A program made the translations under genes and the position numbers. From positions 414,594,001-414,658,000 of the forward strand of contig CM097883.1 in NCBI GenBank assembly GCA_044892505.1: a DNA stretch of 64,000 nt, read 5' to 3'. The notes below the pieces were generated by a model. That model ran no database searches. It was not told the DNA's origin and worked only from the letters and a program-made list of their open reading frames with translations. Shown one piece after another: positions 50,430 through 51,860 of the stretch. Origin of the DNA: Schmidtea nova. Lineage: Eukaryota. Positions within the stretch are counted from its first letter, which is position 1, and every line of letters starts with the position of its first letter.

Positions 50430-51434
50430 AATGTCAAAGTTGTAGATAAAGATTAAAATAAATTAGCTGATGCGAGTGATGTAGTACTTAATAATTACCT
50501 TTTTCATACTCTTTTCAAAGATGCAATTCTTGAATTTAATAATATAAAAGTTGAGGGTGGAAACAATACATATGTACACAAGTCAATTATCAGAAACTAT
50601 TTTAAATTATACGAGTGATGCAAAAGAAACTTGTCTTACTCCAATGGGATATGGAGCATCTGAAGATAGAAAGAAGTGGATTAAAGGATCGAAATTTTTC
50701 AACATGTGTTCATCATTACAACTCGATTTTATAGACCAACCTAAATATTTATTTACCGGAGTTAATGTACATATTAGATTGAAGCGATCTGATTCTGCAT
50801 TTTCATTGACATCTACAGCTAGGAAACCAATAATACAAATATTAGATGCAAAATTAATGGTTCGAAGAGTTCGATGTGAATATTCAGTATTAGCTGGACA
50901 TCAAATTGGAAAATAACAAACATGCAATTTATCCGATAAAATAAAAAGAAATTGTATCTTTTGCAATCATCATTTTACAAGGAGCAAAAAATGCCTAATT
51001 TCATTCTTGTAACTTTTCAAACTGGAAATCAGTATAATGGATCTTATACTGCTTCTTCATCTACATTCAAACATTTTAATGTAACTTCATTATCTCTGTA
51101 GAAAAATACCGATTATCGAGAAACTTATAATCAAGATTTTGAAAATGATAATTTTAGTGCCACATATATGCAAAGTCTTGCTACCAATTTAGGATATTTG
51201 AATAAAAACCTGAAACGCAGTATAAGTCTAGATGAATTTAAAACAAAAAATGCAGTCTTTACTTTTGTTCTTGCTCCTGATTTCGATTTGAATCAAAGTC
51301 AAATCCCTCAAAATGGAAATTTACGATTAGATATCAAATTTGGAAAAGCCACTGAAGAACCTGTCCATGTAATAATATATGGAGTCTTTGAAAATAAAGT
51401 ACAAATTACTGCAAATCTAACAGTACCGGTTTAA
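50430..51434 (+). pseudogene. Polinton/Maverick (adintovirus) major capsid protein, N-terminally truncated and frameshifted
   Basis: Across frames: NNYLFHTLFKDAILEFN..NNTY..ETILNYTSDAKET; LQLDFIDQPKYLFTGVNVHIRLKRSDSAF; ILDAKLMVRRV; AIYPI; YNGSY..FKHFNV; FTFVLAPD..NGNLRLDIKF..VIIYGVFEN. These are collinear with the metazoan Polinton MCP (F54H12.2-like) consensus as I recall it. Confidence 0.88.
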
Positions 51435-51526
51435 GCAAAGCTCAAACATTATTAGTTTGAACTAATTAGGCAAATTAATCAAATTGTCATGGAGTAAGTT
51501 TTTAAATTTGTAAAATAATTAATTAA

Positions 51527-51860
51527 ATTCGTTCTGTTCAGGTATATAGACTTGGTAAAAATCTATTGGGAAATCAATTTATTAGAGTTTATCCATTAGA
51601 TAAAATTCCGTATTTGGATATTAAGCGATCATTGTAAGTACTCAGACATCTACTTTGGGTGGTAAACATTGGATTGCTGTTTACGTTAAACCTGATCAAT
51701 ACATGTTTTTGATCCATTTGGATATTTTTATCCCAATTTATTAGTGAGAAAATTTCAGACTATGGGTAAACCGATTGTATATAATAGAATTAGGTATCAA
51801 CATCCATTCTCGACTCCTTGTGGCCAACATTGCCTTGCATGGCTAAAATCTATGTTATAA
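51527..51860 (+). pseudogene. Polinton adenain-like cysteine protease
   Basis: FIRVYPLDKIP / IIVST..GGKHWIAVY / FDPFG..YN..YQHPFSTPCGQHC, with two frameshifts. Catalytic His (51667), Asp, Gln (51798) and Cys (51819) are recognisable. Confidence 0.85.

Follow-up and report, generated by a model that had tools for sequence, protein, structure and literature searches.

A broken Polinton/Maverick capsid-protease fragment in Schmidtea nova and the high-copy family to which it belongs

Concerning the closest described systems, the Polinton/Maverick elements of vertebrates and nematodes, as presented in the portions of PMC8097293 and bioRxiv 10.1101/2022.07.12.499685 drawn upon here (with PMC6431247, also in part, as general background), follow a gene order of integrase, minor-capsid-like gene, small basic gene, major capsid protein (MCP) gene and protease, and the planarian source family described below has this order in common with them, together with pPolB, an ATPase, TIRs, a 6-bp TSD and the degraded state of most copies. 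In vertebrates, 96% of Maverick loci are given as degraded in the same portion of PMC8097293. With the adintoviruses and MELD viruses, as treated in the consulted sections of PMC8502044, the family shares the hexon-like double jelly roll, adenain, the FtsK-type ATPase, the rve integrase and pPolB. Unlike the vertebrate and nematode Mavericks in these portions, the source family has a mini-TBP gene; in the sections concerned, figure legends are the only place where MELD viruses are credited with a TBP (PMC8502044, section on non-animal datasets; bioRxiv 10.1101/697771), and TBP goes unmentioned in bioRxiv 10.64898/2026.10.13.758929. Regarding planarians, Polintons are reported to be abundant and piRNA-targeted (PMC8532177) and to be expanded in Dugesia (bioRxiv 10.64898/2025.12.11.693146), the relevant passages of both sources being without gene anatomy, in which they differ from the elements described here.

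The present locus lies in a 64-kb stretch of Schmidtea nova DNA (hereafter the window), and we consider it, with a probability of approximately 0.85, to be a broken 1.5-kb Polinton/Maverick capsid-protease fragment, likely left by deletion of both arms and predicted to be inactive, for whose family we infer the mechanism set out further below. The identity of the piece, its breaks, the uniqueness of its junctions and its membership in a high-copy family were observed directly. Similarity to the MCP-protease module of complete elements elsewhere in this genome extends over positions 50425 to 51952 at 89–90% identity (gaps excluded), which bears out the initial annotation of the locus as a Polinton fossil. 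It takes in the last approximately 345 codons of the MCP gene, then the adenain protease, and finally 20 codons belonging to the gene after it, each of these being broken.

The MCP piece (50425–51434, plus strand), as delimited by similarity to natural copies and by profile matches, is without its first approximately 60 codons and is disrupted near 50592, near 50911 and at 50969–50991 as well as by a stop at 51099–51101; relative to natural copies, the window copy has indels at four sites and three stop codons. The collinearity over about 330 codons that had been read from the letters alone was upheld by alignment to a natural MCP copy (its codons 62 to 405) and by four ordered matches to an HMM for which database proteins alone, 78 in number, were used (E 1e-34 to 6e-10), in which 50457–50615 corresponds to profile positions 75–123 (E 6.7e-11), 50548–50913 to 114–237 (E 3.3e-27), 50940–51098 to 273–311 (E 6.1e-10) and 51102–51431 to 321–422 (E 1.5e-34). 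Since these 78 proteins had been recruited by a search with the C-terminal part (644 proteins, E up to 0.001), the two N-terminal pieces constitute an independent test; the next best of 1813 frames reached E 0.41, and the best match in the reversed window E 0.048. Pfam recognises none of the five window pieces, which is why they had looked anonymous. A search of PDB sequences with the C-terminal MCP piece returned one chance row only, and a PDB search with the MCP profile gave weak hexon rows only (E 0.012 and 0.59), below an unrelated top row.

A natural MCP copy of this genome, used in place of a repaired window MCP, is predicted to fold as a double jelly roll (pLDDT 94.6), the fold that had been anticipated for this gene. 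In the PDB the model comes closest to the iridovirus, PBCV-1, mavirus and Sputnik capsids (E values down to 9e-17, TM approximately 0.66), and its top matches in BFVD are likewise double-jelly-roll capsids, from adomaviruses, virophages and one MELD virus, the Pfam DJR-like match of the natural copy (E 7e-4) being below cut-off.

The adenain (Peptidase C5) gene, at 51489–51860 on the plus strand, has its frame broken near 51620 and again near 51698, with a stop near 51637 in between, and is consequently read as three pieces in shifting frames, 75–83% identical to a natural copy. Both the two frameshifts and the catalytic residues of the initial annotation were recovered, with His at 51667, Asp in an FDP motif at 51708, Gln at 51798 and Cys in a CGxHC motif at 51819. 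Natural protease copies scored 25.9–26.4 bits against PF00770 (C5; cut-off 21.3) in two cases of two, and a natural copy aligns weakly with solved adenains (E 0.03), yet coincides with them at the His, Asp, Gln and Cys motifs. The protease had been placed about 90 nt after the MCP gene, which is correct for the point at which similarity begins past the MCP stop but probably not for the gene itself, as this likely begins at ATG 51489 by way of a micro-exon and a short intron. Such a 5-nt first exon, followed by a 37–39-nt GT-AG intron, is predicted in six loci (in the window copy the acceptor region is altered) and is missing from five more distant relatives. The integrase is interrupted within its DxGxEF motif, presumably by another short intron, in three of three same-genome subfamilies; the motif is continuous in all five metagenome relatives caught by pattern among 15 loci tried. 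These putative introns in protease and integrase contrast with the core genes of vertebrate Mavericks and of a nematode Maverick, which are intronless according to the consulted portions of PMC8097293 and bioRxiv 10.1101/2022.07.12.499685, respectively. Beyond the protease, the start (approximately 20 codons) of the conserved ~130-aa post-protease ORF of the family occupies 51890–51952 (plus strand), where Polinton similarity stops. Set against an intact Maverick, which as delimited in the consulted part of PMC8097293 has every core ORF open together with TIRs and a TSD, the window copy offers no more than a broken MCP, a broken protease and 20 codons from the ORF after them. As a locus it is dead and unremarkable, degraded Polinton pieces being the rule in animal genomes.

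The family from which it derives is huge and young. When the MCP piece was compared with the same genome (1.25 Gb), 14,499 candidates were obtained, a figure that does not represent copy number, and the best candidates were scored first; among the best 150 scored, about 116 (counted by eye) have the full 407-codon open frame, so that many open-frame relatives of the fragment are present, as compared with a vertebrate maximum of 38 intact elements in the consulted part of PMC8097293, two counts which are not like for like. Six elements were read, and all six carry an SSB-like gene (a putative label), a 179-aa ORF, the TBP-like gene, the ATPase, a lysine-rich ORF, the integrase, a minor-capsid-like ORF, a small basic ORF, the MCP gene, the protease and the ~130-aa ORF; pPolB is present in five, and several of the elements carry breaks. 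A full element measures approximately 18 kb and has AG...CT termini, TIRs of 1.5–2 kb and a 6-bp TSD, both ends being seen in two of the six stretch pairs (in the other four they were not both visible) and, again with a 6-bp TSD, in four of four further elements checked.

The rve integrase (PF00665, 35.4 bits, accompanied by a chromodomain match) and the ATPase (Pox_A32, 29.1 bits) score over their cut-offs and occur in six of six elements. The pPolB gene is an ORF of approximately 1300 aa with PolB motifs A, B and C. All 91 scored genome matches pass the PF03175 cut-off at a weak 114–123 bits, some of them lying about 5.5 kb from MCP matches; hmmscan of two of the ~1300-aa ORFs gave no PF03175 match, and no match was found among PDB sequences. 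Such weak scores fit the divergent 'Beta' PolB class of adintoviruses, whose traits, in the consulted sections of PMC8502044, are a divergent PolB with an N-terminal OTU domain and GasderminX/Cupiennin accessory genes. GasderminX and PLA2X found no match in the source family, and OTU and gasdermin are likewise missing from its Pfam listing. An Endonuclease VII match lies inside the family PolB; an HNH insert in pPolB is already known from the part of bioRxiv 10.1101/2023.08.22.554363 consulted. The minor-capsid-like gene is a 351-aa ORF in the expected position and without a Pfam match, for which Sputnik minor capsid V18/19 is among the nearest named Atlas clusters (0.92, with 44% of members); this makes a single-jelly-roll minor capsid protein no more than a candidate identity. 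The source elements carry the Polinton/Maverick features listed in the consulted portions of PMC8097293 and PMC8502044, with the minor capsid only putative among them. In one Polinton subfamily the SSB-like gene has as its neighbour an ORF of 207 aa (L016:3766-4386, minus strand) that begins in the manner of a signal peptide; this beginning resembles that of an ORF which in L028 lies within retroelement-like sequence, and Pfam gave no match for the 207-aa ORF.

Between subfamilies, dN/dS amounts to 0.08–0.24 for TBP (15 pairs), 0.05–0.09 for the ATPase (six pairs), 0.07–0.36 for the MCP (six pairs) and 0.14 for the protease (one pair), ratios which place all four genes under purifying selection. 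Across the six elements the integrase-to-capsid block is approximately 95–100% identical at the protein level, with corresponding values of 82–100% for TBP, 51–100% for the 179-aa ORF and 63–100% for pPolB, suggesting mosaic subfamilies that may have arisen by module swapping.

The TBP-like gene of the family encodes approximately 150 aa and matches Pfam PF00352 (E 1.6e-15), and its protein is identical in 125 of 150 scored copies. Its predicted structure (pLDDT 92) aligns with TBP (1mp9) over both lobes (Z 11.1, rmsd 2.7, 138 residues), the top five rows of the structure search all being TBP and the next fold following at Z 6.3. Like cellular and NCLDV TBP (PF00352; PDB 1mp9, 5fur), the mini-TBP would thus form a two-lobed saddle, with 138–140 residues aligned and both conserved Phe of the second repeat kept; unlike these, it is only ~150 aa in length, has a first repeat without helices and without the first Phe, and constitutes a separate family found mostly beside Polinton genes. 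Three of the four Phe residues that we take to be DNA-intercalating are kept, and because the first repeat is without both helices and one of these residues, the DNA specificity of the mini-TBP is a guess.

The mini-TBP has 130 database relatives. Among 81 metagenome loci fetched with the TBP alignment, 35 contain a Polinton core gene (25 of the 40 that reach 3 kb or more), the gene orders being of three kinds or more, and the mini-TBP accordingly marks a wider Polinton lineage; the weakest matches of this alignment include ordinary archaeal TBP, and against viral contigs it recovered one locus, without Polinton genes. The motif ATAAAC[AG] occurs within 100 nt upstream of the start in 16/16 ATPase, 10/11 MCP, 4/5 post-protease, 8/15 integrase and 4/8 protease genes, and in 0/20 TBP, 0/2 SSB-like and 0/1 pPolB genes, against a background of 172 in 3498 tiles, these counts being drawn from 22 mutually related loci picked as lineage representatives, with a motif chosen after the sequences had been viewed and with no TBP-less Polinton as a control, the MCP alignment being too divergent to scan for one. 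A scan of viral contigs by way of the ATPase likewise found no TBP-less Polinton, and the PF03175 loci that had been read as possible TBP-less controls are relatives of the same pPolB. The motif often sits within upstream coding sequence, and no intact copy of it is present in the window fragment.

Taking these features together, we propose that the element would integrate by means of its own rve integrase, in keeping with the 6-bp TSD observed, and would copy itself with a protein-primed polymerase. The mini-TBP gene would be transcribed from an ordinary TATA-type promoter, and its product may then read the TATAAACA-type box upstream of the ATPase, capsid and neighbouring genes, thereby providing an early-to-late switch, after which double-jelly-roll capsids, filled with DNA by the ATPase, would be matured by adenain. 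We give about even odds to the proposition that this box serves as a late promoter read by the mini-TBP. For the family, the strongest competing account, a minority view in our estimation but a serious one, holds that the elements are intracellular transposons whose mini-TBP acts as a decoy or binds a replication origin and is no late-promoter factor. The reduced first TBP repeat would suit such a role, and this account agrees with the published record in so far as no Maverick particle has ever been seen according to the consulted part of PMC8097293 and planarian Polintons are treated as piRNA-silenced transposons in that of PMC8532177; it is at odds, however, with the purifying selection on capsid, ATPase and protease, and with a candidate motif which precedes the packaging and capsid genes but is missing ahead of the TBP, SSB-like and pPolB genes.

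The same genome also contains palindromic one-armed Polinton derivatives of approximately 14–16 kb, in which one arm is present twice in inverted orientation (loci L165-L167, L168-L170 and L171-L172). The duplicated arm is either the polymerase arm or the TBP-ATPase-integrase arm, and the two arms, of 5–7 kb, are 99.5–100% alike. All three palindromes checked have a 6-bp TSD and differing flanks, and they are therefore not fold-back read artefacts; the shared TSD further indicates a single integration of the finished palindrome. The three places were located through inverted gene pairs among the matches. Inverted neighbours less than 15 kb apart (counted by eye) amount to five pairs in 150 TBP matches and seven in 91 pPolB matches. 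Template switching during strand-displacement replication may have generated the palindromes, which would then have integrated with help from complete copies, the alternative being arm-to-arm conversion after insertion. Neither palindromic Polinton derivatives nor a Polinton mini-TBP with a promoter motif were found described in the literature searched, a body of work that lies outside most subscription journals and outside Repbase; the figure maps of PMC8502044 and bioRxiv supplements may show TBP in animal elements. The palindromic derivatives and the putative core-gene introns are what is newly added here for the family.

Returning to the fragment, its left flank (50330–50429, plus strand) is the first approximately 100 bp of a small dispersed repeat, presumably one with a hAT-like end, which is truncated at the junction and has about 5 nt in common with the Polinton start. 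The right flank (51941–52480, plus strand) belongs to a tandem repeat family with a unit of ~572 bp, of which it is a single monomer at 85% identity, and overlaps the Polinton end by about 12 nt. Each junction is spanned only by the window itself among 40 scored matches, and the fragment was therefore not spread as cargo, on which ground a hAT/MITE chimera was also rejected. No TSD was found at the fragment, and for this reason deletion of the arms is not separable from capture as repair filler. Capture of the 1.5 kb from plentiful extrachromosomal Polinton DNA, whether as filler in a double-strand break or through a hAT-type element, would account for two ends that meet unrelated repeats through short overlaps, for the lack of a same-subfamily Polinton arm nearby in the window and for the plentiful templates in the genome; we nevertheless regard it as improbable, given that neither junction has a second copy among the scored matches, that a search for a second end to match that of the left repeat was negative and that short overlaps suit deletion equally well.

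Deletion of both arms remains our preferred origin. Compared with the nearest young copies, the window MCP shows a dS of 0.19 and a dN/dS of 0.27–0.28, and the window protease a dN/dS of about 0.2; as the ratio is 0.27 and not 1, part of the distance between window and copies predates the death of the window copy. As a rough estimate, the source subfamily would by then have diverged under selection, after which the window copy would have undergone approximately 4% neutral decay. A host-domesticated capsid or protease gene, which these ratios and the readable catalytic motifs of the protease might seem to favour, can be set aside as extremely improbable, since both genes have frameshifts and stops, the capsid gene is without its start and divergence of the source subfamily under selection before the copy died would by itself lead one to expect a low ratio.

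A second Polinton relic, of another subfamily, occupies 53440–54291 on the minus strand, 1.5 kb downstream of the MCP-protease fragment, and consists of subterminal repeats (approximately 53440–53795) and a pPolB scrap (53850–54291; 81–82% identical at the nucleotide level to its nearest copies), the pPolB match itself lying at 53905–54108 (minus strand, E 4e-18). The scrap was considered as part of the MCP-protease element and rejected, being of another subfamily and on the opposite strand. The initial annotation had reported no pPolB, integrase, ATPase or TIR, a statement which holds for the TIR, ATPase and integrase of the source subfamily throughout the 64-kb window, and which the pPolB scrap of the other subfamily amends. 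The 680-nt gap described there is a run of 677 N and not an assembly gap, the genome's own copy having a continuous low-complexity repeat at this place.

Other features of the window include a mariner element (48584–49867) whose 26-bp TIRs are perfect and whose transposase contains two stops, a hAT transposase C-terminal fragment (PF05699; 47868–48335, minus strand), a rve integrase fragment (1940–2401), a DDE_1 transposase fragment (33615–34577) and what we take to be a Penelope-like reverse transcriptase fragment (40159–41232, minus strand). An intronless protein kinase ORF of 304 aa is present twice (38271–39633 and 62464–63819), the two copies being 98% identical and 24 kb apart, and exons for a TRAF-type zinc finger and MATH lie at 3664–4299 and 8790–9338. 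Exons at approximately 24973–25290 and 31530–31820 are presumably eyes absent-like; a family match was not obtained for them, and the former is single-copy in the genome.

The locus itself carries little weight, while its source family bears on whether animal Mavericks make particles and on how their genes are timed. Tentatively, and with the odds somewhat against so complete a picture, the fragment may be debris of a still-replicating endogenous DNA virus, an ~18-kb Polinton of hundreds to thousands of copies that would fire its late genes from a private TATAAACA box by means of its own mini-TBP, would have gained spliceosomal introns and swapped modules between subfamilies, and would give rise to copy-back-like palindromic defective genomes that integrate with TSDs of their own. 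Observational tests are offered by the many young open-capsid copies, by the candidate self-encoded promoter factor with its candidate target motif and by the palindromic defective forms. If true, this reading would provide genomic evidence of extrachromosomal strand-displacement replication and would make the planarian family a tractable place in which to seek the first Maverick virion.
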